A stretch of DNA of 64,000 bases from Myxococcota bacterium (GCA_044344255.1 JBIJDH010000002.1:263893-327892); one strand, 5' to 3'; shown: positions 43,433-62,689, counted from the first letter of the stretch. Translations and numbers: made by a program. Notes: a model not told the origin generated them from the sequence alone.

Positions 43433-44848
43433 TCAAGGTCCGGACTTCTTGGCCTTGGTCGCCGCGAGGTTGGAGCGCGCCCGCGCGGTGGTCTCGGCCA
43501 GGGTGCTCCCCAATCGCCGGAGGTCGGCCTCGGGCACGTCGCGGGGATCGATCGCGTAGAGGTTTGGCATGCCAGCCTTGCCCTTGACGGGGATCGGCGG
43601 CAACCGACGGGCGGGGATGGCGTCGCCCAGGGCGTTGAAGGTCGGCTCGCTCACGATGATGCTGGTGCCCACGGAGCGGTTGAGCGACTCCAGGCGGGCG
43701 GCGAAGTTGACGGTGTCACCGATGCAGGTGAACTCCATCCGCTCGAGCGAGCCGATGTTGCCGGCCACCACGGGCCCAGTGGCGATGCCGACGCCGATGT
43801 TCAGCGGGGGGCGGCCGCTCTCCTCGGTGCCCATGCGGGCGTTCAGGGCCTCGACCGCGCGGATCATCTCCAGCGCGACGACGACCGCGCGGAGCTCCTG
43901 CTGCTCCAGGTCGAAGGGGACCCCGAAGACCGCCATGAGCCCGTCGCCCAGGAATTTGTCCAAGGTCCCCCCGTAGCGGAAGACGATGGCCACCATCTCG
44001 GTGAAGTAATCGTTCAGCAGCTTCACGATCTCTTCGGGCTCGGTGGACTCGGCCAGCGGCGTGAAATTCCGGATGTCGGAGAAGAGGATGGTGGCGTGCC
44101 GCCGTGAGCCGCCGAGGCGGAAGCCGGCCTCGTCGGCGGTGACGAGCTCGGCGAGGTCAGGGGAGAGGTACTTGGCCAGCCGCTCTCGCTGACGCTCGAC
44201 CTCGGCGCGCTGCATGGACTCCTGCTCGGCCCGGACGAGGAGCCCCTTGGAAACGAAGGCGATGACGCCGGCGAGGAGCGCGGGCAGGGTCAGGAAGGCG
44301 ATTCGCATCAGCTCGTCGCCAATGTTGATCTCGTTCTTTCCGTAGACAGAGACGGGGCTCACGGGGATGAGATGGCCGACCACCACGTAGGCAAGCACGC
44401 CCGATCCGAGGATCACCGTCACCAACGCGGAGTACATACAGGCGGGTACGCTGTACCGGAGACCCGACATCACGTTGAACAGAACGAGGGCCAAGGGGAA
44501 GAACGACTGATAGTACTCGATGGCGCCGGCGTGATTGGCCTCTGCAGCGAAGATCGCGGCGTGAAAGGTGGCCAAATCGACGAAGATGCTCACGTACTTC
44601 AGCCAGCCCATGTACTCGTCGCGGTGAGCGCGAAAATAGGCAAGCAACGCGACGCTGTACAAGACGAGGACAGAGGACTGCCCAATGAAGACCAAGTTGG
44701 CGAAGAGGGTGTTGATGCCCCACATCGTCGCAACCATTCCACCGGTGAGAATGCCGAGCACGAGGCGAATCCAGGCGACCTGGCGTTCGCCTCGCATCTC
44801 CGCGCTCCGGAGAATTTCCTGAATCTGATCGAGATTGTTCACACGCAT
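43433..44848 (-). CDS. membrane-bound class III adenylate/guanylate cyclase
   Basis: About 6 N-terminal TM helices, then a CHD catalytic domain (..ATILFSDIRNFTPLAE.., ..FLGDGLMAVFG.., ..TCIGDTVNFAARLE..). Confidence 0.9.
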   Translation of the reverse strand: MRVNNLDQIQEILRSAEMRGERQVAWIRLVLGILTGGMVATMWGINTLFANLVFIGQSSVLVLYSVALLAYFRAHRDEYMGWLKYVSIFVDLATFHAAIFAAEANHAGAIEYYQSFFPLALVLFNVMSGLRYSVPACMYSALVTVILGSGVLAYVVVGHLIPVSPVSVYGKNEINIGDELMRIAFLTLPALLAGVIAFVSKGLLVRAEQESMQRAEVERQRERLAKYLSPDLAELVTADEAGFRLGGSRRHATILFSDIRNFTPLAESTEPEEIVKLLNDYFTEMVAIVFRYGGTLDKFLGDGLMAVFGVPFDLEQQELRAVVVALEMIRAVEALNARMGTEESGRPPLNIGVGIATGPVVAGNIGSLERMEFTCIGDTVNFAARLESLNRSVGTSIIVSEPTFNALGDAIPARRLPPIPVKGKAGMPNLYAIDPRDVPEADLRRLGSTLAETTARARSNLAATKAKKSGP

Positions 44849-46515
44849 GGGGGGAGTGGCTTCTCCGGTGCTGGCAGCGGTCGGAGGCTCATGGCTCGGA
44901 CGCAGAGGGCGGTGGTGACCTCAACGCTCCGATAGTACACGATATTATCCAAGGACTTCCCTGGCATCCGGTAGAAGTCTTCGGCCGCCCAGGAGCCGTC
45001 TGGGTGCTGTGCGCCAGAGAGGTATCTCCGCGCGGCTCCCGCCACCAGGGCTGCCGTGGGGTCCGAAGCCAGCGACTCCAGGGCGAAGGCCGTCTTCATC
45101 GGTGATCCGAAGCTGCCGTCGGCGCGCTGCTCCTTCGCCCACGCCTCCCGGTCGAGCTGACGCCGGGCGGTGACCGCGGCCTCGAGCTCGGGGGTGACCA
45201 GCCCGGCGGGGAGCCGATCGACCACACGATGGAAGATCAGTCGGGCGTACGGCGCCGAGTAGAAGAGGTCTCCGTGCTCCGGCTCGTCATCGAATTGCCG
45301 AAGCAGGAGGGCGAGGTTGGCCTCGATGAGCCGCGCGTGTCCGGGCGGGTCCCAGGCCAGCAGGCCGAGGAGGAGGTGCCCCCGGACCGTCGCGCAGCGA
45401 TCGAAGGGCCAGCTTCGAATTGGCTCGTCGAGCGTCGGCCGACCGTCCGGCCAGCGGGTGAACCAGACGGGCGTGGCCCCTGCGGGATCGACGTTCGGCG
45501 CCAGCAGCCGCAGCCAACCCTCGACGCGCGCCGTCGGCCGATCGGGCAGCAGGGCCGCGACGGACAGCATCATCCCGAGAGAGTCGGCGTCGGGTGGAAT
45601 GCCCTGCCAGGAGCCGTACCAGCGCAGGTTGTCGGGCTCAGCGGCCTCGAAGGCGCGGAGGAGGCTGGCGGGGCGACGGGCGCCTGCCTCCCAAAGGGCG
45701 AGGAGCACGAGCGAGGCGGGGAAGATCTGCTCCACAAGCGGCTCGTCGTGGAGGCCGAGACCCCAACGCTGCACCTCCCAGGCGCCGGTGAGCATGGGGT
45801 CGCGGTCGAGGAAGGCGATGGCCTCCTCGATGTCGCGCCGAAGGTCGCCCGATGTGGGCTCTCGACGAGGCGGCCGCCAGAGGCAGGCGAGGGCGTGGAG
45901 AGCTGCGATGGTTTCGACGCGGTCGAGGGCCGCGCGCACCTCTTCCGCCCAGCGGCGGAGGGGGGGGGCCCAAGCTGCATCAAAGGGGAGGTTGAGCAGC
46001 CCCAAGATCGAAGGCTCGAGCGCAGCTCGCAGCTCAGCGCGACCGGCGGCGAGGAGGCCTCGGAGAGCGTACACGGCCGTGGCGGAGGTCCGCTCGTCGG
46101 AGAGGCGACCCCGCAGCGCAGGCCAGATCGAAGTGCCCTTAAGGAGGAGCAGAAGTGAACGAGCGGCAGGGGACAGGAGGTCGGGCGGAGTTGGGCTCCA
46201 CCACTGATCCCACCAGGCACGGCCAATATCGTCGAGGCGCGCGGCCACCTCCAGCCAAGACAGCGCCGCGTCCAGGTCGTCGTCGTCGCGGCCCTCACCG
46301 TCCGTCGGCAGGAGCTGGAGGCCAAAGTTGATCAGGGCCCGCCGTTCACCAGCGGCCCCCATGGCCGACGCGGCTCGGAGCAGGCCCCGGAGAGCAGGCC
46401 TCCGTGCGAGCAGCTCGACCCAGGCATCCGCGGCGCGGAGGGGATCGGCGTCCACGAGACCGGACGTGGGATCCGCGGGAACGTAGGGCGTTCTGAGCGG
46501 TGGGCTCCCCACCAC
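44839..46515 (-). CDS. prenyltransferase/squalene-oxidase (alpha/alpha-toroid) repeat protein
   Basis: 558 aa with QW-like repeats (..AKEQRADGSFGSP.., ..GAQHPDGSWAAEDFY..). Overlaps the cyclase gene by 10 nt. Start is 50 bp downstream of the small peptide gene. Confidence 0.65.
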   Translation of the reverse strand: MVGSPPLRTPYVPADPTSGLVDADPLRAADAWVELLARRPALRGLLRAASAMGAAGERRALINFGLQLLPTDGEGRDDDDLDAALSWLEVAARLDDIGRAWWDQWWSPTPPDLLSPAARSLLLLLKGTSIWPALRGRLSDERTSATAVYALRGLLAAGRAELRAALEPSILGLLNLPFDAAWAPPLRRWAEEVRAALDRVETIAALHALACLWRPPRREPTSGDLRRDIEEAIAFLDRDPMLTGAWEVQRWGLGLHDEPLVEQIFPASLVLLALWEAGARRPASLLRAFEAAEPDNLRWYGSWQGIPPDADSLGMMLSVAALLPDRPTARVEGWLRLLAPNVDPAGATPVWFTRWPDGRPTLDEPIRSWPFDRCATVRGHLLLGLLAWDPPGHARLIEANLALLLRQFDDEPEHGDLFYSAPYARLIFHRVVDRLPAGLVTPELEAAVTARRQLDREAWAKEQRADGSFGSPMKTAFALESLASDPTAALVAGAARRYLSGAQHPDGSWAAEDFYRMPGKSLDNIVYYRSVEVTTALCVRAMSLRPLPAPEKPLPPCV

Positions 46516-46565
46516 GACCAGCTTTGGCCAGTCGGGCGGGGAGCCGTCTCGCTCCGGGGATCGGC

Positions 46566-46796
46566 TCAGCTCGCGGCTCGCCGGTCAGCGAAGGCAGCGT
46601 CGAGGTTCGCGGCGGCGGCTTCGGCAGCAGCGGGATCCATGCCCTTGAGCTGCCCCATGATCTCGGGGCTCACCTCGTAGCCCTCGGCGGCGATCGTCGC
46701 CTCGGGGTCCGTCAAGAGGCGGCGTCGGAAGTCGGGATCGATCACCGCGCGACCGATCAGCGAATCAGTACCCTTCTCAGAGGAATTCTTACCCAT
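46566..46796 (-). CDS. small helical peptide, NHLP/Nif11-leader-like (76 aa)
   Basis: MGKNSSEKGTDSLIGRAVIDPDFRRRLLTDPEATIAAEGYEVSPEIMGQ.. parallels the LI-K-A--D--F---LL--P-A-I--E-G---PE helix pattern of NHLP/Nif11-type leader peptides. First 11 codons are unusually low-GC. Reading frame is open and GC3-rich thereafter. Confidence 0.5.
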   Translation of the reverse strand: MGKNSSEKGTDSLIGRAVIDPDFRRRLLTDPEATIAAEGYEVSPEIMGQLKGMDPAAAEAAAANLDAAFADRRAAS

Positions 46797-47109
46797 GTCT
46801 CAAGTCCATTGGTGTTTTGGGTTTGGGTTGGCTGCTGTCGGGAGCTGGGAGCGGGGCGCGATCCGTGCAGGGTGATGAGCCGGATCCCTCAAAGGGTGCC
46901 GGGCGGCTTGCAAGGGACCACGATTCTGGTAAGGTCGCGCAATTAGGCGGCTTATCGAGACAGACCGGCTCGGGTGCCTCGGCCAAGCGACTGCGATTTG
47001 TGGGTCACCCGAGGGGGGGGGCGGTTGACCGCCGCCCACGGTTGAGGAGGGTCACTTTTCCTGCTAACGTGAAGTTTTAGCAACGCCCAATGCAAGGTTC
47101 GAGGATCTC
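46797..47109. promoter_or_regulatory. 313-bp divergent intergenic region between the leader-like peptide gene and the RRE-M50 gene
   Basis: Contains a G9 run followed by the near-palindrome GGCGGTTGACCGCC, an AT-richer segment (cttttcctgctaacgtgaagttttagcaacgcccaatgcaagg) with GCTAA/TTAGC inverted repeat, and the motif CTGGTAAGGTCGCG. Confidence 0.4.
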
Positions 47110-48342
47110 GTGCAACCCAATGAGCGCCCCGCGCGCGCCGGGCTCCAGCTGTTGATCCGCAAGTCGGACGACGCGGGGGCGGGCTACGAGATCCGAACCG
47201 TACACAGTAGTCAGGCGTTTCTGCGAATGCGCCCAGTAAGGGCAGCGATCCGTGCGGTAGAAGAGAACGTCGTCGACGAGGCGGCGGGGAAGGTGCACGT
47301 CCTCCGGCTGGAGGGTGCAGGCTTGGTCACGGCGCAATACTTGAGGTTGAACGAGCGGGAGCGCTTTATCTGGCAGCACGTGGATGGTGACCACACCATC
47401 CAGGACATCGCCGCTGCGCTCTTCTTTCGGTTTGGTTCACTGGACGTGCGGGACATACGTAGCTTCCTCCATCGTGCCCGACAGGCTGGGCTGATCGCGA
47501 TGCAGGCGGAGACCCCTCTTCGGCAGCGTGCGGTGGCTCGGGGGGGAGCGTTGGGCCGGCTCTTGGACCGCCTCCCTCGGCTGGAGCGGCGCTGGCGCGA
47601 TGTGGACGCCGGTTTCGCCCGCGCTCACGTCCTCTTCGGGTGGCTGCTGTCTCGACCCGCGAACGTGCTCTTGGCGGTGCTCGCCGGTGCGGGAGCGGCC
47701 GTCTATGCCCGTTATCGATTCTCTGGACAGCTGGGTGAGGCGGCCTGGCCATTCTTTGTCGATATCGCCCTTTGGATTGTGATCCTCCTGACCTCCATGG
47801 CCCTCCACGAGCTGGCCCACGGTCTGCTCACCAAAGCACATGGACGGAAGGTGAAGGCCGTTGGTATGGAGCTCCTTGACTCGATCGTTCCGAGTTTCTA
47901 CGTAGACATCACCGACATGTGGATGTCCACTCAGCTTGGACGAATCGAGGTCACGCTCGCGGGTCCCTGTACCAACCTCCTCCTCGGTGGGCTGGCGGCC
48001 CTGACCGCGGGCGCCGCCCAGGCCTTGGGGGCCCCGGCCGCGCTCGGTGAGGTGCTCTCGCTGTGTGCGGACGCAAATTATGCACTTGCTATCTACACAC
48101 TTTGGCCGTTCTTCGGTCTTCGAGAAGACGGCTACGAGCTGCTGACCGACGTCCTCCGCGTGCCGGCGCTGCGGCCGCGGGCGGTGCACGTCCTCCGTGA
48201 GTGGGCCGATCGCAGCCTCCCGCGTGAGCCTGACCTCCATCTTCGAGGGGCGGCGGTGATCTACCTCGCGGGGGTGCTGGCCACCTGGATCGGGCTCCTG
48301 GTGGCGTTCCTCACCGTCGTCTCTCGGTTCGTCGGGGGCTGA
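47110..48342 (+). CDS. PqqD-like RiPP-recognition-element domain fused to site-2 protease (peptidase M50) membrane domain
   Basis: Residues ~75-140 (YLRLNERERFIWQHVDGDHTIQDIAAALFFRFGSLDVRDIRSFLHRARQAGLI) follow the PqqD consensus (LNE-t-a-iw-l-DG--t---I---l---f-----DV--FL). Downstream TM region carries HELAHG (HExxH) plus a ..PFFGLREDGYELL.. LDG-like motif, as in M50B proteases. Confidence 0.72.
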   Translation: MQPNERPARAGLQLLIRKSDDAGAGYEIRTVHSSQAFLRMRPVRAAIRAVEENVVDEAAGKVHVLRLEGAGLVTAQYLRLNERERFIWQHVDGDHTIQDIAAALFFRFGSLDVRDIRSFLHRARQAGLIAMQAETPLRQRAVARGGALGRLLDRLPRLERRWRDVDAGFARAHVLFGWLLSRPANVLLAVLAGAGAAVYARYRFSGQLGEAAWPFFVDIALWIVILLTSMALHELAHGLLTKAHGRKVKAVGMELLDSIVPSFYVDITDMWMSTQLGRIEVTLAGPCTNLLLGGLAALTAGAAQALGAPAALGEVLSLCADANYALAIYTLWPFFGLREDGYELLTDVLRVPALRPRAVHVLREWADRSLPREPDLHLRGAAVIYLAGVLATWIGLLVAFLTVVSRFVGG

Positions 48343-51300
48343 GGTCACCCTCGGAGGCCGGCGATCTTGCTTGGAGCGGGAGGTTGTCGGTGGTGTCCTC
48401 CTCTTCGGCCGCATGGGTGCGGGCGGCGGATGGGACCTCGGGGGTCCAACGACCGCGCAGGCGCGCGTGCCCCCAAGCGTCGCCGTCCTGGTCGGCCTCT
48501 TTGCAGCGCCGCTCGAGGTCGGGGATTGGGCGGTTCGACTTCAGGGCCAGACCGTACAAGAGCCGCTGAAGGTGGACCAGGTTGTATCGGTGCGCCACGA
48601 CGAGCTCTGCGCTGATGTCGCCCGGGAGGGCCACTTCGAGGCGGAGGCGAGCTTCGGCGAGCCGGATGCGGAGGAGCAAGGCGTCGTGCGGATCCTCGAG
48701 GTCGGCAGTGTCGAGGCTGCCGATCACGGCCGCCGCGCCCTCCCGATCTCCGATCAAGGTGAGCGCAAGCCCGATCTCTCCGTGGAGCATCGGCGAGGCC
48801 ACGGGATCGAGCCACTCTGCGGGCACTGACCCGCGGCGATCGAGCCAGACCGAGAGGGCCTCCCGATCCCCGTAGGTCGCGGCGGAGAAGAGCCCCGCCC
48901 GCAACACCTGCACTGCGACCGCCCGGCCCGGGCGCCGGCGAAGCAGGGCCCAGGCGGCCTGGAGCGAGGCACGGGACCCCTCCGGGTGGCCCACGATCGC
49001 CTGAACCACGCTCAGATCGGCGAGGACGCCGCAATGGAGCTCGGGGTCGTCCAGGCGATCGGACAGGGCCGCGGCGGCCTCAAGGCGACTCAGCGCCAGC
49101 CGGATCTGCCCTTGACGGAGGTGGATGAGGCCCATCAAGTGCTGAGCGCCCACCTTGCCGCGGCTGTCCCGCTTCCCCGCGCTATGGGTGAGCAGGTCGC
49201 GGATCGGGCGCTCGGCCTCGGCCCACCGACAGAGCGCGACGGTGATCGTCGCCTCCATCCACGCGAGGTCAAACCTTCGCGGGGTCGGCGCGGCGGCTGA
49301 GGTGGTGAAGCGCTGCGCCTCCCTGAGGTCGCGGTCGGCGTCGTTCCATCGGCCGAGGCCGGCCTGTGCGCGGGCCAGGAGTACGGCCCATCGCAGGGCC
49401 CCCTCCGCCCGGCCCTCGAGCTCGTCGGCGGTGATGGCGTCTGTGAAGCCGGCGCGCGCTTCGTCGGCGCAGGCCGCGTAGCGGCCCTGGCGCAGGGCGC
49501 AGCGAGCGGACTCCATGCGCGCGCTGTGGCGCTCGGCGAGCGTGGCGGCCACCTCAGCGGCGCGGGCGGCGTGCGCGAGACAATCGGCGTCGCGACCGAG
49601 CTGAAAGGCAATTCGGGCCCGGGTGATCTCGATTCGATGGCGCAATGGGCCCGAGCCGGGAGCGGCTCCGCTGGGTCGGGCCAGCCAGGCCGAGGCGTCC
49701 GCGGGGCCGTGCTCGAGCAGCGCTTGCTCCGCCTCGGTCACGGCGGTCTCCCACGCGACGTCCCCGCGGTGCTCTCGCGGCGCCGCCGGGGTCCTGGGCG
49801 CCTGCCGCTCGGCCCAGGCGCGGGCGAGGCGCACCAGCGCCGCCGGGTTGCCGGCGAGCTCTCCCGAGTGGGACCAAGCGAGCTCCGGTCCTGCGTCGTC
49901 GATCATCGAGCGGGCCATCTCGGCGAGCTGGCCGGGGGTGAGCGATCTCAGCGCGATCCGCTCAGCGGGCAATCGGATGCGATCGGGCTGGTGGCTGGCC
50001 AGCACGAGCATGGCGTTGCCGTGGAGCGCGGCGAGATCGGCGGGGTCGACGCGCTCCGCGTCGTCGATGGCGATGAGCAAGGGGCGCTGCGCGACCGCCC
50101 GCCGCACCACCCGGCCCGTGGCTGCTTGGAGGCGGCTGATGGCCGAGCGCACCTGGTGAGTGGGCCCCTCTTCCTCGTCGTCGTCCTCGGGCTCTCCCTG
50201 GTTGAGCGAGGGGACGGCCTCGAACAAGAAGCCGCGATCGTCGCCGAGCAGGTGGCGACGGGTGGCGATGGGGATGAGGGGCCCCACGAGGGCCTCCAGC
50301 ACCGCGGAGAGGATGTCGGGGCGGCCGGAGAGCAGGACCTGTCGGCCTCCGCGCAGCAACACCTCGCCCCGCAGCTCGGAGAGGGCGCGGCTCAGCCCGA
50401 TCCCGGGCGGTCCGTGGACGATGACCGTGGCTCGCTCTGCGTTGAGGGTGCGATCTCGCAGCAGGCGGAGCGGCCCCCGATCGCCCACCCACCGCGAGGT
50501 CAGCGCCCGCGGGCGCCAGGGCAGGGGCTGGGCAGGCTCTCCGGCGGCGCGGCAGAGGACCCACGCGACCTCGCGGGCGGAGCGCGGTCGGTCCGCGGGC
50601 GCCTTCTCCAAGAGCCGCTCCACCAAGGCGACGACCTCTGGCGGTGCGCTGGGAGCGAGGTCGGCCAGCGGGGGCGGCGTGGCGGTGCAGACCGCCAAGA
50701 CGAGGTGTGCGAGGTCCGGCCCTGCGAAGGGGGGCTGCCCCGTGAGCAGCTCGTAGATGACGACCCCGAGCGCGAAGAGGTCAGCGCGAGAGTCCACCTC
50801 CATCCCGGTGAGCTGCTCGGGGGCCATGTACCGTGGGGTGCCGGTGATGGGGCCGGAGATGGGGTCACCGGGGCGCAGGTCGATCCGGCGGGAGAAGCCG
50901 AAGTCGATCAGGCACAGGCGACCGACCGCATCCACGAGGATGTTGTCGGGCTTGACGTCCTGGTGCACGAAGCCAGCCTCGTGCACGGCGGCGAGGCCGA
51001 GCGCGAGCTCACCAGAGAGGTGGAGGATGGCCTTGAGGCGGGCCCCTGCGGGCTGGTCTTCGAGCCATCGGGTGAGCGTGCGCCCCTCGACCAGCTCCAT
51101 CGCGAGCCAGGCCCAGTCTCCCTCCTCGCCGCCGCCGAGCAGCGTCACGACCCGAGGATCTGAGACCGCGCTGAGGGCGGTGACCTCGCTCGTGAGGCGA
51201 TGGAAGAAGCGCGACTGGCTGCGGTGAACCAGCTTCACGGCCGCGAGCACGCCGGCCCGCTCCGCGCGGACCACCTCGCCCGCCGCGCCCTGGCCGAGGC

Positions 51301-51373
51301 GCTCAAGCAGCGTGAAGCCCCCGATCTGGGTGAGCGGCAGGGCGTCGAGGCGGTGGTTCGTCGGCTCAGACAT
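48311..51373 (-). CDS. Ser/Thr protein kinase fused to NTPase and TPR-like repeat region
   Basis: Start at Met 47 of the track ORF. Kinase motifs GQGAAGEV, HQDVKPDNIL, DFG, PRYMAPE. Then a P-loop-like region (..VIVHGPPGIGLSR..) and about 500 aa of helical repeats. 3' end overlaps the convergent M50 gene by 32 nt. Confidence 0.88.
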   Translation of the reverse strand: MSEPTNHRLDALPLTQIGGFTLLERLGQGAAGEVVRAERAGVLAAVKLVHRSQSRFFHRLTSEVTALSAVSDPRVVTLLGGGEEGDWAWLAMELVEGRTLTRWLEDQPAGARLKAILHLSGELALGLAAVHEAGFVHQDVKPDNILVDAVGRLCLIDFGFSRRIDLRPGDPISGPITGTPRYMAPEQLTGMEVDSRADLFALGVVIYELLTGQPPFAGPDLAHLVLAVCTATPPPLADLAPSAPPEVVALVERLLEKAPADRPRSAREVAWVLCRAAGEPAQPLPWRPRALTSRWVGDRGPLRLLRDRTLNAERATVIVHGPPGIGLSRALSELRGEVLLRGGRQVLLSGRPDILSAVLEALVGPLIPIATRRHLLGDDRGFLFEAVPSLNQGEPEDDDEEEGPTHQVRSAISRLQAATGRVVRRAVAQRPLLIAIDDAERVDPADLAALHGNAMLVLASHQPDRIRLPAERIALRSLTPGQLAEMARSMIDDAGPELAWSHSGELAGNPAALVRLARAWAERQAPRTPAAPREHRGDVAWETAVTEAEQALLEHGPADASAWLARPSGAAPGSGPLRHRIEITRARIAFQLGRDADCLAHAARAAEVAATLAERHSARMESARCALRQGRYAACADEARAGFTDAITADELEGRAEGALRWAVLLARAQAGLGRWNDADRDLREAQRFTTSAAAPTPRRFDLAWMEATITVALCRWAEAERPIRDLLTHSAGKRDSRGKVGAQHLMGLIHLRQGQIRLALSRLEAAAALSDRLDDPELHCGVLADLSVVQAIVGHPEGSRASLQAAWALLRRRPGRAVAVQVLRAGLFSAATYGDREALSVWLDRRGSVPAEWLDPVASPMLHGEIGLALTLIGDREGAAAVIGSLDTADLEDPHDALLLRIRLAEARLRLEVALPGDISAELVVAHRYNLVHLQRLLYGLALKSNRPIPDLERRCKEADQDGDAWGHARLRGRWTPEVPSAARTHAAEEEDTTDNLPLQARSPASEGDLSPRRTERRR

Positions 51374-51425
51374 CCACGACCAGATAACGGGGAGCATGAC
51401 CGGCGCCCTCTCTTCGCGACTACAC

Positions 51426-52289
51426 ATGCTCTCACCGCTCCGGTCGGTCAGGGCTTCGCGGGTGAAGCCCGGTGGGGGCTGTGCAGCCCTCTGGCCGCTC
51501 CTGCTCGCCACGGCCTGCTCCGCGCCGCCGGTTGCCCGTGATCGGGACCGCTACCTCGCCGTCCTCGCTGATCCTGAGCTTGAGCCGAGCGTAGGCCTCG
51601 GCGCTTGCGCGGAGATCTCGGATGATGACCTGCGCGGCGACTGCGGGCTGGCCGTGGTCAGCGCCGAGGCGCGTCGGAGGGGAGGAGCGCCCGAGCGCTG
51701 GTGTGGAGAGGTGGAGGCCGGACCGTGGCGGGACGAGTGCTACTTCGTCGCCGCCGAGGCGCATCGTAAGCGGGGGCGCGAGCAGAGCGCGGCCTGGCTC
51801 TGCGGGCAAGCGGGTCGCTTTGTGGACGACTGCGGGCAGCACCTCTGGCAGACCGCGGTGTACTCTCTCGTCCACAACAACGGCCCCGACGGGATCTCCG
51901 CCGCGCTCCCCCGCGCTCGACAGCTGTACGCACGATGGCTGCCCTTGCTCGGGGAGACCACCGACTTCAAGGTCCGCTTTTGGGAGCGCTACTATCAAAA
52001 CGGCTTCGAGGGACTCGGGACGCTCGATCTGCGGTGGTGTGACCGGCTCGACCTCGAGGAAGACCGACGGCGCTGCGTCGCCGCGGCGGTGAAGCTCTAC
52101 GACCGAGAGCTGGGCCCAGGGATTCAGCGGGGAAGAGTCAATCTGTGCGCCGAGCGCTTGACCTCCGGGGAGCTCCAGGACTGGGTCCACGCCGTCCCGG
52201 ACCCCCGCTTCGACGCCGCCGTCGACCGTCGCCGCGTGGAGCTCTGCGGCGGCGACACGACCCCTCCTCCGCCGGCCCCGCCGCCTTGA
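51426..52289 (+). CDS. Cys-rich lipoprotein, hypothetical
   Basis: Signal ..MLSPLRSVRASRVKPGGGCAALWPLLLATAC SAPP. Many conserved-looking Cys and Trp. Start is Met 39 of the track ORF (Met 29 also possible). Confidence 0.5.
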   Translation: MLSPLRSVRASRVKPGGGCAALWPLLLATACSAPPVARDRDRYLAVLADPELEPSVGLGACAEISDDDLRGDCGLAVVSAEARRRGGAPERWCGEVEAGPWRDECYFVAAEAHRKRGREQSAAWLCGQAGRFVDDCGQHLWQTAVYSLVHNNGPDGISAALPRARQLYARWLPLLGETTDFKVRFWERYYQNGFEGLGTLDLRWCDRLDLEEDRRRCVAAAVKLYDRELGPGIQRGRVNLCAERLTSGELQDWVHAVPDPRFDAAVDRRRVELCGGDTTPPPPAPPP

Positions 52290-53018
52290 TCAGCGGAGGT
52301 GGGCCCCGAGCTCGACGCCGGCCTGTACGAGCCACCACTCCTCGAGCGCCGTGGGGTCGAGCCCGCTCCGCTGGGTCGCCCAGCTGGCGCGGAGGAGCAG
52401 GTCCGCGAAGCTGCGATCGGTCACCCGGCGACGAAGCCCGGCCTCAAAGCTGAGGGTGGGGAGCGCCAGCGGCCCACCGTGGTAGGCGTCGAGGTCGAGG
52501 CGGCCGAAGCCGAGCCCGAAGTCGGGGCTGAAGGGGGCGGAGGGGTCACCGCGCAGCACGCCCAACACGCCGTAGTGGATGTAGTCGATGGCGATCTCTT
52601 CGGTGGCCTCCGCCTCGGCGCCAGAGGTGGGGTTGGTCGCCTCCCCGCTTGGCTCCAGCGCCACCTGTCCGGGCCAGACCGAGGTGGCCCCCCAGAGGCT
52701 GAGCCCGAGGCGGGGGCCGCTCGCTGCGCGGCTGACCGCGAAGGCGTCGTAGCGGAACATCAGCGCGCCGTGGACCCCGGACTCCGGCCAGGGGCCTGCG
52801 AGGGTGCCCGCGAGGTAGCCGAGGGCGAGGTCGGCCCCGAAGGGGGGCGGATCGTCGGGAGTGGGCGCCTGGTCGCGCCGATCCGGGGTGGAGGGCGGCG
52901 GCGCTGGGGGCGGCGGGAAGGTGATCGGCCCCTCGGCCCAGCCCTCCGAGGCGGCGCCGATCATGGCTCCGCAGAGGAGGGCGAGGCGCGAGGCGAGCGG
53001 GCCGAGGCGGGAGTTCAT
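52290..53018 (-). CDS. secreted beta-rich protein (possible outer-membrane barrel)
   Basis: Start Met 240 of the track ORF, overlapping the GHMP kinase stop (ATGA). Signal MNSRLGPLASRLALLCGAMIGAASEGWA, then alternating hydrophobic pattern. Confidence 0.5.
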   Translation of the reverse strand: MNSRLGPLASRLALLCGAMIGAASEGWAEGPITFPPPPAPPPSTPDRRDQAPTPDDPPPFGADLALGYLAGTLAGPWPESGVHGALMFRYDAFAVSRAASGPRLGLSLWGATSVWPGQVALEPSGEATNPTSGAEAEATEEIAIDYIHYGVLGVLRGDPSAPFSPDFGLGFGRLDLDAYHGGPLALPTLSFEAGLRRRVTDRSFADLLLRASWATQRSGLDPTALEEWWLVQAGVELGAHLR

Positions 53019-54019
53019 GAGGGCCCCGTGAGGGCCGACCAGGCCGAGAGGCCCGCCAGCCCGAGGTGATGGATGGCGGCGCGGGCGCTCTCCTCGTCGG
53101 GGAAGAGCGCGATCACGGAGCCGTCTCCGCCAGCGCCGGAGAACTTGGCCCCCAGAGAGCCCGACTCTCGGAGGGCGCGACAGGTCCGGATGAGCTCGGG
53201 GGCGCGGAGCTCCGGGACGACGGCGGCCATGTCTTCGTAGGCCTCTTGGGCGGTGTTCATCGCCACACCGAGGCGCTCGGGCTCCCCCTGCTCGAGGGCG
53301 CCGGCGGCAGCCTCGGCGAGGCTGGCGAAGAGGGCGAGGCCCTCCCGCACCGCGCGCACCGCCTCGGGGTGGAGGGGGGCGCGGAGGTCGTCCTCGTGGT
53401 GCCGATGCAGCGCGCTGAGGATGGCGCCAGTGTTCCTCGGCGCCTTGAAGGCCGCGAGCACAAAGTGGAAGTCGTGAGCGGGCCGGACGCGCCGGAGCGG
53501 CGCCGTGCCTTCGCGCCACTGCAAGAAGACCGGGGAGCCGGCGACGCAGGCGAGGGGGTCGAGGCGCCCGCACTCCACGCCGAGCAGGTCGTGCTCCAGG
53601 CGAAAGGCGAGCTCGGCCAGCTCCTCGGCGTCGAGCACGCAGCCCGCGTGTCGGGAGAGGGCGTCGAGCACGGCGAGGCTGAAGGCCGCGGACGAGGAGA
53701 AGCCTCGGCCAGGCGGCAGGGTGGAGTACACCCACAGCAAGGCGGGAGGGAGGACCAGCCCCCGCTGGTGGAGGAGCGCGGCGGCGGCGGGCACGAAGCG
53801 GAGCGCGCCGCCCGCGCGGTCGATCCGCCCGCGGATAGGCCAGCGGCCCTCTTGCAGCTCCCCGTCGAGCGCGGTGCGGACGCGCAGGTCTCGCTCCGCC
53901 TCCTCCACGGTCACCTGGACGCTCAGGGGCAGGGGGATGGCGAGGCTGGCGCCGCCCGCCCAGTCACAATGCTCTCCGATCAAGCAGGCTCGACCTGGAT
54001 ATCGAACCGTCAGCGACAT
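53015..54019 (-). CDS. GHMP kinase family protein
   Basis: ..LPPGRGFSSSAAFSLAVLDAL.. phosphate-binding motif and N-terminal ..GRACLIGEHCDWAGG.. typical of GHMP kinases. Confidence 0.85.
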   Translation of the reverse strand: MSLTVRYPGRACLIGEHCDWAGGASLAIPLPLSVQVTVEEAERDLRVRTALDGELQEGRWPIRGRIDRAGGALRFVPAAAALLHQRGLVLPPALLWVYSTLPPGRGFSSSAAFSLAVLDALSRHAGCVLDAEELAELAFRLEHDLLGVECGRLDPLACVAGSPVFLQWREGTAPLRRVRPAHDFHFVLAAFKAPRNTGAILSALHRHHEDDLRAPLHPEAVRAVREGLALFASLAEAAAGALEQGEPERLGVAMNTAQEAYEDMAAVVPELRAPELIRTCRALRESGSLGAKFSGAGGDGSVIALFPDEESARAAIHHLGLAGLSAWSALTGPS

Positions 54020-54058
54020 CTGTGGGTCCGCATGGCAGGGATCAAGCGCTCCGGGGCC

Positions 54059-54304
54059 CTAATAGCACTCTCGCGCGCCGTACTCGTGCCGCAGCTCGCG
54101 ACACTCCCGGAGCTCGGCGCGGCTGGGATCATCGAGCTCCTTTACGCACTGCTCGACGTTGGCCCAACCCTCTTCGGCGAACTCGGTCTCCCAGGTGGTG
54201 CCACACTCCTTCACCCAGCGGTCGAGCGACTGGCACATGTCGACACAAGGGCGCTCACAGCCGGAGGTGCCGAGGGCCGCGAGGAGGGAGAGGGTAGGTC
54301 GCAT
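54059..54304 (-). CDS. small Cys-rich lipoprotein (81 aa)
   Basis: MRPTLSLLAALGTSGC lipobox, then 8 Cys in 65 residues. Lies between the PilZ-protein and GHMP-kinase genes on the same strand. Confidence 0.45.
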   Translation of the reverse strand: MRPTLSLLAALGTSGCERPCVDMCQSLDRWVKECGTTWETEFAEEGWANVEQCVKELDDPSRAELRECRELRHEYGARECY

Positions 54305-54333
54305 CTCGGCAGTCTACCCCGGTTGGTGCCAGC

Positions 54334-56115
54334 TCAGGCGCCGGCTTCCTCGGTCGGAGGTGAGAGGGCGCTCGGCATCGAGGCGAGCTGCATGGACAGC
54401 CAGAGGCGGTTGAGGGACTCCGCCTCGCGCACGGTCAACGAATTGAAGGCGCAGCCCGCCCGACGAAGCTCGGGGAGGTCGGGGAGGGCCTTCGTGTACC
54501 GAACCACCGCCGCGACGCGGACTTGATGGTTACGGAAGCGGATGTCGAAGACGAGGGGTGTCCCCACCTCCACGCTGGCGGGCAACAGCAGGCTGCAGCC
54601 GCCGAGCGAGAGGTTGGAGAGGTGGACCTTCTCGCTCCCGTCGCCGTTCGGCCAGGGGAGACGGGGAGAGATCGTGGACCAGAGCTCCAAAGAGCCCACA
54701 GCGCGAAAGCTGGCGCGGCGATCGGAGCGGCCAAGGTAGACGATGTCCTCGACGCGGGCCTCGCGCTCCGCCGTCACGAGGCCGGGGAGCGTCACCGGCA
54801 GCCGGGCGCCGATGATGCGGCGAAGGTTCTCGGCGTAGATGCTACGGATGCGCATCGGCGGCCGGATCAGGTGGCAGACGTCGGTGGGGTCGGTCTCGTG
54901 GGAGATCCGCTCGCGGACCTCGTCCACCTCGATCGCCGGCTCGTCGGCCTCCACGTGTCCCGTGCCGTCCAGGCGCAACACCCGGAGCTCGTCCCCGTGC
55001 ATCACGAGCTGGGCCCGCTCGAAGCAGGAGCGCCCAACATGCTTCCAGACGCTGGCGACGAAGTCTGGGCGCTGCTGGCGGCGGGCGAGGCGCCCCAAGG
55101 TGAGGGGGTCGGTGCAGACGCCCCCCGGCTCGCTGGGGGGATCGTCCACGAGGGTCATGGGCAGGAGGCGCTCGGCGATCTGGTCGAATTCGCCGAGCGC
55201 GTCGTCCATCAGGAAGGAGTGTCGCTCACTTCGGGTCTCCAAGGTGAGGTGATCGCGCTCGGCCCCTTCGACGGCCACCCTCCGTACGGTGGACCAAGGG
55301 ACCTCCCTCGCCTCACCTTCATGGACGAGCCCAGTGAGCCCGTGGACGGCGAAGTGAAAGCCATGATCGGTCATCAGCATCTTGCCGGTCTGCTGAACGG
55401 GCCCTCGGGTCACGCCGATGTCGATCAGCCGCAGGCCGCTCGAGCGGAGCGGCCGCTGGGCGCCGACGCCCATGGCGACGAGGGCTCCGAACACCGGCCA
55501 CACCAGGGCGCCCTCCAGCCGCACCTCGCCCGCGGGGGTGGAGATGACGAGGAGGCGACCGGCGTGCAGGAGGGTCGTGTGGGAGATGTCCCGGTGCGCG
55601 ACGGACCACTCCGCGCGGTTCAGCAGCAGGCGCTCAAGGCCGCTCGGTCGGAAGCGGAGGCCGTCGGTGGTGAGCCTCAGCTCGCCGGCGGTCGACATGA
55701 GGCCGTCGGTGGAGCGGGTGGCGGAGCCGCAGATGAGCAGGCGCCCCGGGGCTTCGGAGGCTGGCTGCGAGAGCAGCACCTGGAGGAGCGAGACGGCGAT
55801 TGCGTCGTTGTACTTGCTGACCAGCTTTCGGCGCTCCGAGCCCGCGTGGACGACCAGGTTTCGGTCGACTCCGACCATCTGGAGGTGGTCCAGGGATTGG
55901 AGAGGGAGCGCCCAGCCGCCCCGCGTGGCCGGCTCGAATTTGACCTCGCCACTTTCGACCGAGATAAAGCCGCGGCGAGACAACAGGCCGGTGTTGTCGA
56001 GCACCGCGAAGCGCAGGGGCGGGGCCCCCGCTCCGCCACCGAGCGTCTGCTCGGGAGCGCCGGCGTGGGCGGCCGTCGAGGGCAGAGCGGATGGCGCTGA
56101 AGCGACGGCGGGCAC
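54334..56115 (-). CDS. multidomain protein with C-terminal PilZ domain
   Basis: C-terminal ..EKVHLSNLSLGGCSLLLPASVEVGTPLVFDIRF..VRVAAVVRYT.. matches the PilZ c-di-GMP-binding fold pattern. N-terminal 450 aa unassigned. Confidence 0.65.
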   Translation of the reverse strand: MPAVASAPSALPSTAAHAGAPEQTLGGGAGAPPLRFAVLDNTGLLSRRGFISVESGEVKFEPATRGGWALPLQSLDHLQMVGVDRNLVVHAGSERRKLVSKYNDAIAVSLLQVLLSQPASEAPGRLLICGSATRSTDGLMSTAGELRLTTDGLRFRPSGLERLLLNRAEWSVAHRDISHTTLLHAGRLLVISTPAGEVRLEGALVWPVFGALVAMGVGAQRPLRSSGLRLIDIGVTRGPVQQTGKMLMTDHGFHFAVHGLTGLVHEGEAREVPWSTVRRVAVEGAERDHLTLETRSERHSFLMDDALGEFDQIAERLLPMTLVDDPPSEPGGVCTDPLTLGRLARRQQRPDFVASVWKHVGRSCFERAQLVMHGDELRVLRLDGTGHVEADEPAIEVDEVRERISHETDPTDVCHLIRPPMRIRSIYAENLRRIIGARLPVTLPGLVTAEREARVEDIVYLGRSDRRASFRAVGSLELWSTISPRLPWPNGDGSEKVHLSNLSLGGCSLLLPASVEVGTPLVFDIRFRNHQVRVAAVVRYTKALPDLPELRRAGCAFNSLTVREAESLNRLWLSMQLASMPSALSPPTEEAGA

Positions 56116-56350
56116 GGTGATCCTCGGGGGCAGCGGGGAGCGGTCAGCGGGAGGGACGAGGTTTAGTCTCCAATACCCCGGCGTGTGGCCGTCGTCTTTG
56201 CCAGTCGTTCGTCCACTTGTAACGAAGTGTAACGCTGGTCGGAGGCGTGACGCAGGCTCGTTCGGTCGCGCCGGTGCGCGGGGGCTGGCCCGAGGGATCG
56301 AGCGGCCGGGCGGCGGACCTGGGGCTACACTTGGGACCTCGGAGGACGGA

Positions 56351-57244
56351 ATGGGGTCGAGACACGCAGCCGGTCAGCAGTCGCTCTTGCTGTGGGGGCT
56401 CCTCGGGCTCCTCGGGCTCCCCGGCTGCTCGGGCAAGGGCGAGGGAGAGGACACGGGCGACAGCGCGCCCGCGCTCGGCCAATGGACCGACGTGGGGCTC
56501 GGCTCCGAACATAGCTGCGCGCTCAGCCGGGTGGGCGACGTCATCTGCTGGGGGAGCGCAGACCAGGAGCAGACCAAGGTCCCGCGGGGGCGGGAGTTCT
56601 CGGGGCTTGGCGTCACGAGCACCTGGAATTGCGGCGTTGAACTCGACGGGGAGGCGGAGTGTTGGGGTGCGGTGCCCGACGAGGTCAACCGCAACGGCAC
56701 CCCGGCGGGCCCCCTCTCGGGGATCATCGGCGGCGCGGCTTCTCTCTGCGCGCTTGACGCCTCGGGGGCGGCGGTCTGTTGGGGCGGGCTCAGCGAGGGC
56801 TCCGCCGGGCCCTACGAGCAGCTCGGGGCGGCCTCCGACGTCGCCTGCGGCCGCTCCTCGGCGGGCTCGCTCACCTGCTGGGGCAACCCCTCCTCGCCGT
56901 TGATGGACTTCCCGACGGGCACCTTCCAGGACTTCTCGATCTGGTCGACCCACGGCTGCGGGCTCCACGAAAACGGGAAGGTCGAGTGTTGGGGCTACGA
57001 CGCGGATGGCCGCCTCGACGCCCCGGACGCCGAGTTCACGCGGGTCGTGGTGGGGAGCAGCCAGAGCTGCGCCCTCGCGGCGAGCGGTGAGATGACCTGT
57101 TGGGGCAAGGCTGCCGCGCCCGTCGCCGGCGCCTGGTCGGAGATCGCCCTCGGCGTGTCTCATGGCTGCGGGGTCACCGCCGACAACGCGCTCTCCTGTT
57201 GGGGTACAAATTCCCACGGCGACACCGTCCCGCCGACCGAGTGA
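56351..57244 (+). CDS. RCC1-repeat lipoprotein
   Basis: Lipobox LLGLLGLPGC, then at least 6 repeats of the ..H(S/G)C(A/G)L..G...CWG.. type (HSCALSRVGDVICWGS, NCGVELDGEAECWGA, ..). Start is Met 312 of the track ORF. Confidence 0.75.
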   Translation: MGSRHAAGQQSLLLWGLLGLLGLPGCSGKGEGEDTGDSAPALGQWTDVGLGSEHSCALSRVGDVICWGSADQEQTKVPRGREFSGLGVTSTWNCGVELDGEAECWGAVPDEVNRNGTPAGPLSGIIGGAASLCALDASGAAVCWGGLSEGSAGPYEQLGAASDVACGRSSAGSLTCWGNPSSPLMDFPTGTFQDFSIWSTHGCGLHENGKVECWGYDADGRLDAPDAEFTRVVVGSSQSCALAASGEMTCWGKAAAPVAGAWSEIALGVSHGCGVTADNALSCWGTNSHGDTVPPTE

Positions 57245-57291
57245 TCGGCTATCTACGCCCGCGACGTCCACCTGGGTTCGGAGCCCCCTGC

Positions 57292-58032
57292 ATGCGCCCC
57301 ACCGTTGAATTTCCGCCCCCCGCCGCGGCCTCCTCCGCGGGGCGCCCTTCGGCCCCCGTCTACGGGGCGCTCCTGGCCGTGATCCTCGGCGGGGGGTTGA
57401 TCAACTCCCCTGCGGCCGTCGCCGCCAAGAAGGCGGCCGCCGCCAAGAAGAGCGAGGTCCCCACCGAGATCCTGCCCGGTGGGGCGCCCTCGCTCACCGA
57501 CACTGTTGGCTACCTCACCCGCTCCGTCTCCCAATTTCCGAGCAAGGTCCGCCCGTGTAAAGCCGCTTCGACCTTGGAGATCAGCCCGGAGGGAGCGGTC
57601 AAGCTCACCACCCTGCGGCAGACCTACTGTGAAGACAGCCTCGTGGTGGTCCACCTTCAGGACCTTGACGCCAGCACGGTGCGGACGGTGTGGACCCCCG
57701 CCCCGGCGCTGATCGTCGGCTGCAAGGCGGGGGCCACCTGTGCCACGGTCAGCGTCCGGCGGAAGTCGCTCACCCCCGCGGGGTGGATCCTGCGCGACAC
57801 CGACTGGGTGCCCGGGGTGCTGGAGACGATGCCGGCGCGGCAGGCGCAGCTCGAGATCGCGCTCGACGCCGACGCCCACACCCAGGAGCGCCTCGCCAAC
57901 GGCCTCCGCTACTTGATCACGACGGCCGCGGCGGCCCCGGAGTTCCAGCTCCCGGCGGATCCCTTTGTGACCGCACCGGTCGCCGCGAGTGAAGAGGTTG
58001 CGCCGGCCGAGCCGGGCGTCGCCGCTCCCTGA
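57292..58032 (+). CDS. secreted hypothetical protein
   Basis: Start Met 65 of the track ORF. Signal-like LLAVILGGGLINSPAAVAA. No known motif. Confidence 0.5.
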   Translation: MRPTVEFPPPAAASSAGRPSAPVYGALLAVILGGGLINSPAAVAAKKAAAAKKSEVPTEILPGGAPSLTDTVGYLTRSVSQFPSKVRPCKAASTLEISPEGAVKLTTLRQTYCEDSLVVVHLQDLDASTVRTVWTPAPALIVGCKAGATCATVSVRRKSLTPAGWILRDTDWVPGVLETMPARQAQLEIALDADAHTQERLANGLRYLITTAAAAPEFQLPADPFVTAPVAASEEVAPAEPGVAAP

Positions 58033-58077
58033 GGGCCCTCGAAACACGAAGCTCCCGGGTGCGGCAGATCGGTGGGG

Positions 58078-58584
58078 TCAATCGCCGCGGCGGTCGCCCG
58101 TGCCCGGCGCCGGCTTCGGAGCTGCGGGGGGGTGGTTCTTTCGTCCGCCGCGACCGGTGACGCCGGCGATACGATCGAGGATGCCATTGACGAAGGACTT
58201 GCTCTCCTTGTCGCCGAAGCGCTTGGCGAGCTCGACGGCCTCGTTGATGCTGACGCTGGCTGGCACTTCGGGGCAGGTGAGCAGCTCGTAAGCGGCGAGT
58301 CGCAGGATGTTTCGATCGACCACCGGCATGCGGACGAGGCGCCAGTTTTGGCTGGCACCCTCGATGAGGGGATCGACCTCGGCCCGCCGCTTCTCGACGC
58401 CGAGCACCAGCGACTCGGCGAATTCAATCTCATCGGGCTCGGCCGGGCGCGGCGCCTCGACCACCCCCTCCAGATCGAGCTGGCCGGCCCAGAGGGCGCG
58501 CAGGGCCTCCCGACCGGTGGTGCCGGCGAGGTCTACCTGAAAGAGGGCTTGGAGGGCGAATTCGCGAGCGCGGCGACGGGCCAT
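58078..58584 (-). CDS. nusB: transcription antitermination factor NusB
   Basis: MARRRAREFALQALFQVDL.. is the canonical NusB N-terminus. Located downstream of ribH as in many bacteria. Confidence 0.92.
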   Translation of the reverse strand: MARRRAREFALQALFQVDLAGTTGREALRALWAGQLDLEGVVEAPRPAEPDEIEFAESLVLGVEKRRAEVDPLIEGASQNWRLVRMPVVDRNILRLAAYELLTCPEVPASVSINEAVELAKRFGDKESKSFVNGILDRIAGVTGRGGRKNHPPAAPKPAPGTGDRRGD

Positions 58585-58585
58585 T

Positions 58586-59062
58586 TCAGCGGCCGCCCAG
58601 GTTCTGGAGGAGGCCGACCATCTCGAGGGCGGCGAGCGCGGCCTCTACGCCCTTGTTTCCCATCTTGGTGCCGGCCCGCTCGATGGCCTGCTCGATGCTC
58701 TCGGTGGTGAGCACGCCGAAGGTGACGGGGACGCCGGTGTCGAGCATCACGGAGGCGAGGCCCTTCGTGACCTCCCCGGCCACATAGTCGAAGTGGGGGG
58801 TGCCTCCGCGGATCACACAGCCGAGGCCGATGATGGCGTCGAACTGGCCCGACTTGGCGAGGCGGCTGACGATGAGGGGCATCTCGTAGGCGCCCGGCAC
58901 CCAGACCACCGTGGCGCGAGCCTCGATGTCGACGCCGTGGCGGCGCAGGCAGTCGAGGGCGCCGTCCAAGAGGCGGCTGGTGATCAGATCGTTGAAGCGG
59001 GAGACGACGAGGGCAAAGCGGCCGCCGGTATCGGTCAGGCCAGCTTCGATGACACGAGGCAT
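58586..59062 (-). CDS. ribH: 6,7-dimethyl-8-ribityllumazine synthase
   Basis: 158 aa. ..[38 protein letters not shown].. lumazine synthase signature. Confidence 0.95.
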
Positions 59063-59100
59063 GAGGGCTCGCTGGGCTCAGAAGGGGAGGGGGCCCCGCG

Positions 59101-60348: not shown

Positions 60349-60386
60349 GATCTTGTCTCTCCTGTGCTGGATCCAGCTGCACCCGA

Positions 60387-62222: not shown

Positions 62223-62689
62223 CCGCGCTGCGGCCCAGGAGCCGCCTCCGCGAGCCAAGGCTGGAGCAAGGTCAGGAACTCGTCGGGTGAGCCCACCTCC
62301 TGATAGACGCTGGCGAAGCGCAGCCAGGCGACACGGTCCAGGAGCTGCAGCTCGCGGAGCACGAGGCGGCCAATCTCTGCAGCGTGGACCTCGGGCTGGG
62401 TGCCGGCCAGCAGCGCCTGCTCGACCCGATCGGCCGCGACCTCAATCTGGTCGGCCGAGACAGGGCGCTTCCGGCAGGCGAGCTGGAGGCCGCCGAGGAC
62501 CTTGTCCCGGTTGAAGGGCTCGCGCGAGCTGTCCTTCTTGACGATCAGCAGGGGCCGCTGCTCGACGCGCTCATGGGTGGTGAAGCGGAAGGAGCAGACG
62601 AGGCACTGGCGCCGCCGCCGGATGCCATCTCCCGACTGTCGGGTGTCGAGCACCCGCGTCTCCGGGTGATGGCATTGGGGACAATTCAC
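62219..62689 (-). CDS. nrdR: transcriptional repressor NrdR
   Basis: [22 protein letters not shown] zinc ribbon plus ATP-cone. 156 aa. Confidence 0.95.

Follow-up and report, generated by a model that had tools for sequence, protein, structure and literature searches.

What is a membrane adenylate cyclase doing in one operon with a small leader-like peptide and an enzyme that resembles terpene cyclases? This question is raised by positions 43,433 to 48,342 of a 64,000-nucleotide (nt) stretch of DNA from a Myxococcota bacterium (GCA_044344255.1, JBIJDH010000002.1:263893-327892), which was analyzed as a whole and which we refer to as the window. Genes for the peptide, the enzyme, and the cyclase are packed together there, divergent from a gene for a protease that joins a recognition element (RRE) of peptides that are ribosomally synthesized and modified post-translationally (RiPPs) to an M50 metalloprotease domain (Table 1). 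An initial annotation, made from the sequence alone, had proposed that these genes constitute an uncharacterized RiPP-like cassette. Our results support that reading in outline but do not uphold a wholly undescribed class. The interpretation we favor, at a probability of roughly 45%, is that these myxobacterial genes encode a variant of the terpene-decorated ribosomal peptide systems that is coupled to cyclic AMP (cAMP) signaling.

The peptide, enzyme, and adenylate cyclase genes form one conserved block

We retrieved the surroundings of the enzyme's closer relatives (15 loci) and searched their open reading frames (ORFs) with the window proteins. Genes for the peptide, the enzyme, and the membrane cyclase occur in the same order and on the same strand in nine loci (L002, L004, L005, L007, L008, L009, L011, L012, and L014), and two others that are cut at the peptide side (L010 and L013) retain the enzyme and the cyclase. 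Homologues of the RRE-M50 protease were found in the same divergent position in L002, L007, L008, L009, and L011. Identity to the window proteins is 48 to 68% for the peptide, 46 to 55% for the cyclase (across 11 loci, membrane part included), 40 to 45% for the protease, and 33 to 39% for the enzyme, and most of the related loci are in Myxococcota-type genomes. The peptide, the class II terpene-cyclase-like enzyme, and the membrane adenylate cyclase are thus one conserved gene block, with the RRE-M50 gene often divergent beside it. Because this order recurs in 10 independent loci at 33 to 68% protein identity, the grouping is more than chance. None of the other neighbors of the window cassette recur in the related loci.

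The prediction of a conserved RiPP-like peptide-maturation cassette has held up: close homologues of the peptide were always linked to the cassette neighbors rather than free-standing, the RRE region passes the PqqD model, and synteny is kept in related genomes.

The enzyme is a class II terpene-cyclase-like protein

As a single query, the enzyme gave no usable match in Pfam or NCBIfam, and it was identified only through a profile of its homologues and a structure model. The family comprises 228 representatives at 50% clustering in an exhaustive search (a less sensitive, word-indexed search for homologues returned six matches), and its conservation lies mainly in residues 225 to 543. A profile of 65 family members matches squalene-hopene cyclase (E 7e-22) and, across the whole domain, the single-domain cyclase 8PAK (E 5e-12); its N-terminal part matches polyprenyl synthases by way of some members. 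The AlphaFold model (pLDDT 87.9, pTM 0.88) has as its top structural matches class II terpene cyclases without exception, and its fold is that of the MstE-type single-domain enzymes. The protein had been described initially as a squalene-cyclase-repeat protein comparable to LanC or to the beta subunit of protein prenyltransferases; the QW-type repeats and the terpene-cyclase fold bear out the first half of that description, and the comparison with LanC and prenyltransferase beta subunits falls away.

Five residues are invariant in the family (D309, D311, C374, D506, and G507). D309 and D311, found in 65/65 members, belong to the PPDxD[D/S]LG block, which reads DxDD in many of them. Judging from its place at the start of an inner helix in the model, we infer that this block would correspond to DxDD, the general-acid motif of class II cyclases.

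These features bear directly on the possibility that the toroid protein modifies the peptide itself, by thioether formation or prenyl transfer in the manner of LanC or a prenyltransferase beta subunit, and so represents a wholly new RiPP class. An alpha/alpha toroid encoded beside a leader-like peptide and an RRE protease speaks for such a class, but neither fold is among the best 60 structural matches, the peptide has no Cys (so that lanthionine formation is impossible), and the family has no invariant His that could complete a Cys-Cys-His or Asp-Cys-His zinc site. We consider this explanation very improbable.

For a terpene cyclase, by comparison, there is a precedent in peptide maturation, and the statement in the initial annotation that no described RiPP class uses such an enzyme is outdated. 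As summarized in a 2026 review (PMC13290415), Hubrich et al. (Chem 2024) reported fused prenyltransferase-cyclase (PC) maturases of ribosomal peptides, NctPC and ChrPC. According to that review, the transferase domain is of the ABBA type in NctPC and trans-isoprenyl-diphosphate-synthase-like in ChrPC, the NctPC cyclase domain is likened to MstE, and the two enzymes put a C10 to C20 prenyl chain on Trp that the cyclase domain then cyclizes (PMC13290415). Another paper gives the product the name steromaze (PMC13647313).

A polyprenyl-synthase-like protein accompanies the block in related loci

In eight loci with the complete block (L004, L005, L007, L008, L009, L011, L012, and L014), a gene for a protein of about 300 to 320 amino acids (aa), here called P, stands directly upstream of the peptide gene, and L001 and L006 also carry a stand-alone P gene. 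The position of the window's divergent intergenic region is taken up by a P gene (~310 aa) in four related loci. By sequence, the stand-alone P proteins have no significant match in Pfam or the PDB. They share the motifs YLHVRxxDDLLDEG and HQLFxDxxDxxKDL, and distant members of the enzyme family carry a genuine PF00348 domain with DDxxD ahead of the same cyclase domain (P0063, 52 bits). Since the P proteins are homologous in profile-profile comparison to these PF00348-bearing N-terminal domains (hhalign 97.8%, E 1e-12), and since the alignment pairs one of their motifs with the first Asp-rich region and the other with the second, P is a stand-alone polyprenyl-synthase-like protein.

The P proteins also shed light on the N-terminal helical domain of the window enzyme, which matches only their C-terminal half. 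It is what is left, in degenerate form, of a trans-isoprenyl-diphosphate-synthase-like (P) domain, namely of its C-terminal half.

The peptide belongs to the NHLP clan and is paired with an RRE-type protease

The peptide passes PF14407 (Frankia_peptide; 60 bits versus a cut-off of 48) and NF038399 (Os1348 family NHLP clan protein; 70.1 bits versus 40). It falls below the cut-off of TIGR03793, the NHLP leader family (23.2 bits versus 50.9). The initial description of an NHLP/Nif11 leader-like peptide thus stands as regards the clan and not as regards the TIGR03793 leader family, and clan membership rests on NF038399. The peptide ends in AAFADRRAAS and contains neither Cys nor Trp. In the window peptide and its close homologues, the tail has a fixed length of seven residues after a conserved AAF; it is conserved and usually ends in Ser, Thr, or Cys.

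In the protease, both Pfam models score above cut-off, as expected from the initial proposal of a PqqD-like RRE fused to an M50 protease with HExxH: PqqD with 28.0 bits (cut-off, 23.4) over residues 75 to 129 (47332-47496) and Peptidase_M50 with 28.8 bits (cut-off, 27.2). The HExxH motif reads HELAH (residues 233 to 237; 47806-47820), and REDG at residues 337 to 340 is the downstream Asp-Gly ligand motif. The best NCBIfam match is the daptide intramembrane metalloprotease NF041824 (87.7 bits, below the cut-off of 300). RRE-type M50 proteases are known from daptides.

The properties of the peptide and the distribution of P bring up an alternative in which the enzyme has a free isoprenoid lipid as its substrate and the adenylate cyclase senses that lipid; the small protein would then play a partner's role (e.g., as escort, regulator, or protease substrate) and would not itself be modified. 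The window and L002, which also lacks a P gene, both have the protease gene abutting the peptide gene, and they keep all four genes intact without a prenyltransferase despite divergence to 35 to 66% identity. The peptide is free of Trp and behaves as a conserved small protein, Os1348 crystallizes as a folded dimer, and MstE and 8PAJ-type enzymes have small-molecule substrates. Against this stand the RRE on the protease, which points to recognition of a leader peptide, and the fact that in eight loci P is the gene just upstream of that for the peptide. Also against it are the L001 peptide, which ends in Cys and adjoins an HFCD flavoprotein, a peptide-tailoring enzyme, and the published cyclase domains of the PC type, which act on peptide-bound prenyl groups (PMC13290415). 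On balance we think this alternative rather unlikely, and we retain a terpene-decorated peptide as the preferred reading.

The membrane adenylate cyclase is part of the cassette

The adenylate cyclase is a class III enzyme (PF00211, 94.6 bits) in which about six hydrophobic helices (residues 24 to 199) are followed by a helical linker and the catalytic domain (residues 251 to 427); a simple hydropathy scan of residues 24 to 199 picked out five segments clearly and a sixth more weakly. The enzyme has the metal, transition-state, and Lys residues (D258, D302, K298, N381, and R385). Its nearest solved relatives are the bacterial adenylate cyclases 6fht, 2w01, and 3r5g, and Rv1625c/Cya (7yzi) aligns with it from residue 181, in the last helix, onward. 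Its recurrence across loci confirms the initial view of it as a membrane class III cyclase that belongs to the cassette. Across loci, the membrane part (E 1e-45 to 1e-66) is as strongly conserved as the catalytic domain. This membrane domain has no detectable named family, and the word-indexed search, which is too insensitive to judge its occurrence outside such cassettes, returned one match.

Several observations tie the cassette to second-messenger signaling beyond mere adjacency: the 10-nt overlap of the cyclase and enzyme genes, the conserved membrane part, cyclic nucleotide monophosphate (cNMP)-binding proteins in two related loci, and kinase-cyclase fusions that stand beside the enzyme in place of the membrane cyclase in three (L001, L020, and L037). 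In L005, a cNMP-binding protein of 165 aa is encoded in the same operon as P, the peptide, the enzyme, and the adenylate cyclase; the segment concerned (L005 7303-9541) also encodes a homologue of the iron/2-oxoglutarate-dependent halogenase WelO5. In L006 (3445-5100), a soluble HExxH (HELAH) metalloprotease fused to a C-terminal cNMP-binding domain is encoded between the P and peptide genes, which suggests cAMP control of peptide processing. L001 (Sorangium sp. So ce269, CP150321.1, 69-16038) is a larger related cluster with a peptide of 80 aa that is weakly related and has Cys as its last residue; it also holds the HFCD flavoprotein, the stand-alone P, two P450s, a cyclase-like enzyme, and a kinase-cyclase-AAA_16 fusion of 1,363 aa.

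Relatives of cyanobacterial type (L016 9804-13418, L017, L082 5742-10895, and L019 2759-7998) have a true polyprenyl_synt domain fused to a class II cyclase. An ORF of 35 to 40 aa precedes the fused enzyme; it is similar in three loci, and none of these ORFs contains Trp. Polytopic membrane histidine kinases flank the fused enzymes, and L082 adds a GerE/LuxR response regulator. These loci resemble the comX-comQ-comP-comA layout, with a small ORF, a fused enzyme, a histidine kinase, and, in one of them, a LuxR-type regulator. The repeated pairing of the family with membrane sensors, adenylate cyclase in one case and cyanobacterial histidine kinases in the other, suggests that the peptides are signals and not antibiotics.

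The same chemistry could, of course, serve a different end, namely an exported specialized metabolite (e.g., an antibiotic lipopeptide), with the cyclase as nothing but a regulator that responds to an unrelated cue. Os1348, the only member of the peptide family to have been studied, plays a part in antibiotic activity (PMC7726476), kinase/cyclase regulators are known companions of NHLP-type clusters (TIGR03903 by its name), and the replacement of the membrane cyclase by kinase-cyclase fusions in the three loci named above would fit a regulatory role. However, no exporter is conserved with the cassette, the peptide has no variable core, translation of the cyclase is coupled to that of the enzyme, and the membrane domain of the cyclase is as conserved as its catalytic domain. 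An exported metabolite of this kind is, in our estimate, unlikely.

We also considered anti-phage defense of the Pycsar type, with the cyclase producing a cyclic nucleotide alarm signal. The PADLOC PycC models do match the cyclase (best score, 97 bits), but this equals the generic class III level (94.6 bits). Moreover, no gene next to the cyclase in the window encodes an effector with a cNMP-binding domain, PADLOC gave no match for the peptide, enzyme, or protease, and the flanks are housekeeping in character, all of which makes a defense function extremely improbable.

A proposed pathway and its weaknesses

In the terpene-decorated peptide pathway that we favor, the polyprenyl-synthase-like P transferase would, by analogy with the PC maturases, put an isoprenoid on the peptide, probably at or near the fixed-length C-terminal tail. 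In the window and in L002, this transferase would be supplied from elsewhere in the genome, or else the prenylation step would be bypassed. The cyclase-like domain would then protonate the isoprenoid carried by the peptide and cyclize it through D311, again as precedent suggests. The RRE of the protease would bind the helical, leader-like part of the peptide, and the M50 domain would cleave the membrane-seeking peptide at the membrane, as in related maturation systems. More tentatively, the lipopeptide product might be sensed within the membrane by the helices of the adenylate cyclase, giving rise to a cAMP signal; such a step would parallel ComX/ComQ/ComP, with cAMP in place of phosphorylation. 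The narrower claim that a cyclized-isoprenoid peptide or a terpenoid is the native ligand of the co-translated cyclase membrane domain is speculative, and we consider it unlikely.

A number of observations weigh against this interpretation. At E<0.01, the 64-kb window yielded no homologue of P, and no prenyltransferase is encoded there. Asp-rich motifs were not found in the N-terminal domain of the enzyme, and the third Asp of DxDD is Ser in the window enzyme (DADS). Trp is present in 0/11 peptides (that of the window and 10 close homologues), and the characterized transferases of the PC kind all target Trp (PMC13290415). The peptide is the most conserved of the four proteins, with 48 to 68% identity over nearly its full length in nine related loci; its domain match reaches residue 68 of 76, and it has no Gly-Gly site and no variable core. 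Such end-to-end conservation is unlike that of ordinary RiPP precursors and of polymorphic pheromones. No exporter is conserved with the cassette across the related loci. Finally, a sensor domain common to the adenylate cyclase and the cyanobacterial histidine kinases was considered and rejected, as BLASTP found no similarity between them. In our assessment, the absent transferase and the absent Trp are the main weaknesses, with the uniform conservation of the peptide and the lack of an exporter as further ones, and both the chemistry and the sensing of a ligand are inferred.

What the membrane anchors of adenylate cyclases sense has been an open question for decades (PMC12414865, PMC4821796). 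A membrane cyclase that is locked by gene overlap, across deep divergence, to a predicted terpenoid-peptide pathway provides a concrete ligand candidate. If borne out, this would define genetically, for the first time, a ligand-receptor pair in which the membrane anchor of an adenylate cyclase is the receptor, and it would amount to a ComX-like autoinducer circuit with cAMP as its output. It would also involve new acceptor chemistry on a Trp-free peptide: the attachment chemistry would be new because the precursor lacks the only known acceptor residue, Trp. More broadly, the cassette would extend the terpene-cyclase type of ribosomal peptide into the myxobacteria, with a split maturase. The link to the membrane adenylate cyclase is, in our judgment, the part most deserving of experiment.

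Gene starts and genomic surroundings

The ORFs and spacings proposed initially were recovered without change, including the 50 nt between the stop codon of the peptide gene and the GTG at 46515, the 10-nt and 32-nt overlaps, and the 313-bp divergent region (Table 1). The public annotation, available for two identical contigs, places the start of the enzyme at ATG 46362 (507 aa) and that of the protease 20 codons further downstream. A 71-nt stretch containing the stem-loop after the peptide gene has a folding energy of -38.3 kcal/mol (z -3.44), which none of 200 shuffled sequences equaled. No T-run follows this stem-loop, and it is not kept in those related loci that have spacers of 4 to 5 nt. 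The 507-aa version of the enzyme is plausible because the public calls use ATG 46362 and because the strong stem-loop covers the GTG at 46515. The stem-loop may set the ratio of peptide to enzyme transcript, or it may signal that the enzyme starts at ATG 46362. A promoter scan of the divergent spacer found no sigma-70-type consensus, a result that is uninformative for this kind of organism.

Table 1. Positions of the cassette genes, their parts, and adjoining features in the window
Feature	Position	Strand	Remarks
Small precursor-like peptide gene	46566-46796	-	76 aa
Cyclase-like enzyme gene	44839-46515	-	558 aa from GTG 46515; 507 aa from ATG 46362
N-terminal helical domain of enzyme	45880-46431	-	Residues 29-212; no conserved Asp-rich motif
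C-terminal class II terpene-cyclase-like alpha/alpha barrel	44887-45852	-	Residues 222-543; single-domain
D309-A-D311-S block (PPDxD[D/S]LG)	45580-45591	-	Best-conserved block in the enzyme family
Membrane class III adenylate cyclase gene	43433-44848	-	Start overlaps the upstream enzyme gene by 10 nt
RRE-M50 protease gene	47110-48342	+	Divergent from the peptide operon
Divergent intergenic region	46797-47109	.	313 bp; separates the peptide operon from the protease gene
Stem-loop, ~18 bp	46505-46543	-	Spacer directly after the peptide gene; 3' arm spans GTG 46515
Kinase/NTPase/TPR gene	48311-51511	-	32-nt convergent overlap with the end of the protease gene

The G+C content of the cassette (43500-48000) is 0.62 to 0.68, compared with 0.70 to 0.75 in the flanks, which may reflect acquisition or merely be an effect of genes for membrane proteins.

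The gene that converges on the protease gene encodes a Ser/Thr kinase with AAA_16 and TPR domains and resembles the TOMM kinase/cyclase fusion minus its cyclase domain. Neither the kinase (84.1 bits) nor the adenylate cyclase (40.1 bits) passes TIGR03903, the model of that fusion (cut-off, 705.75). The resemblance may be coincidental, as the single TIGR03903 match spans the kinase domain only. The initial annotation regarded this protein as an associated regulator; we rejected it as a cassette member, since it is not conserved with the cassette and no homologue of it adjoins the cassette in the other loci with a membrane cyclase.

Past the cyclase gene, the segment 39425-43392 contains ORFs of 886 aa (minus strand) and 328 aa (plus strand) with no family match and no counterpart in the related loci, and an overlapping 526-aa ORF (plus strand) with a weak PEGA match. 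The flank at 53015-63945 is housekeeping in nature and includes a galactokinase-like GHMP kinase, a 593-aa PilZ-domain protein, ribBA, ribD, and serine hydroxymethyltransferase. The window flanks are thus housekeeping or unrelated, and no genes for isoprenoid supply, an exporter, YcaO, LanM, or a radical SAM enzyme were seen in the window, in agreement with what had been reported for the last four.

Comparison with known systems

The closest parallel is provided by the terpene-RiPPs matured by PC enzymes. The cassette has in common with them an MstE-like single-domain class II cyclase encoded beside a ribosomal precursor with an NHLP-type helical leader and, through its relatives, a trans-isoprenyl-diphosphate-synthase-like partner that is fused in distant members and separate in eight loci. 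It differs in that the transferase is split off, and absent in the window, with a degenerate half-domain still fused to the window cyclase; in that the precursor has neither a Trp acceptor nor a variable core; and in that a membrane adenylate cyclase is the invariant, overlapping third gene and the protease is an RRE-M50 fusion. We do not file the cassette in the described PC class because of the split or absent transferase, the dead half-domain, the lack of Trp, the uniform peptide, and the invariant cyclase. As for the enzyme itself, MstE (6SBB) and the single-domain cyclase of Archangium gephyra (8PAJ) are 18 to 21% identical to it; they are stand-alone proteins with small-molecule isoprenoid substrates, whereas the window enzyme has an extra N-terminal helical domain and is tied to a peptide gene.

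The ComQ-ComX-ComP-ComA system of Bacillus follows a similar logic, in that genes for a small peptide, for a modifying enzyme resembling polyprenyl synthases, and for a polytopic sensor in the membrane come one after another, and ECOD groups the ComX domain with the Frankia_peptide and NHLP domains (PMC12353581). In the cassette, a class III adenylate cyclase takes the place of the histidine kinase as the output, a terpene cyclase domain is added, and the peptide is free of Trp and conserved rather than polymorphic, so that only the logic of gene order is common to the two.

The best named relatives of the protease are RiPP maturation proteases, those of the daptides (NF041824) and the YydH/LiaK epipeptide protease (NF058609). 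The cassette protease aligns with the daptide model over residues 75 to 397, which include the N-terminal recognition region as well as the M50 HExxH domain. At 87.7 versus 300 bits it is a relative and not a member, and the cassette has no daptide tailoring enzymes. A more distant likeness is seen to cluster OS3 of Pseudomonas sp. Os17 (Os1348-Os1351, PMC7726476), which shares the small-protein family (NF038399 is named after Os1348) and an HExxH peptidase. Its partners are a GNAT protein, a soluble HExxH protein, and a SagB-type dehydrogenase, and it has no terpene cyclase and no adenylate cyclase (PMC7726476).

The adenylate cyclase, finally, is built like the Rv1625c/Cya enzymes: about six helices at the N terminus, then a helical linker and the class III catalytic domain. 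The membrane anchors of such six-helix cyclases have been proposed to be orphan receptors (PMC4821796, PMC9433096, PMC12414865), with lipophilic ligands among the proposals (PMC4821796, PMC12414865). The window cyclase differs from Rv1625c/Cya in that Lys-Thr, not Lys-Asp, seems to be its substrate-defining pair and, more to the point, in that it shares an operon with a candidate ligand pathway.

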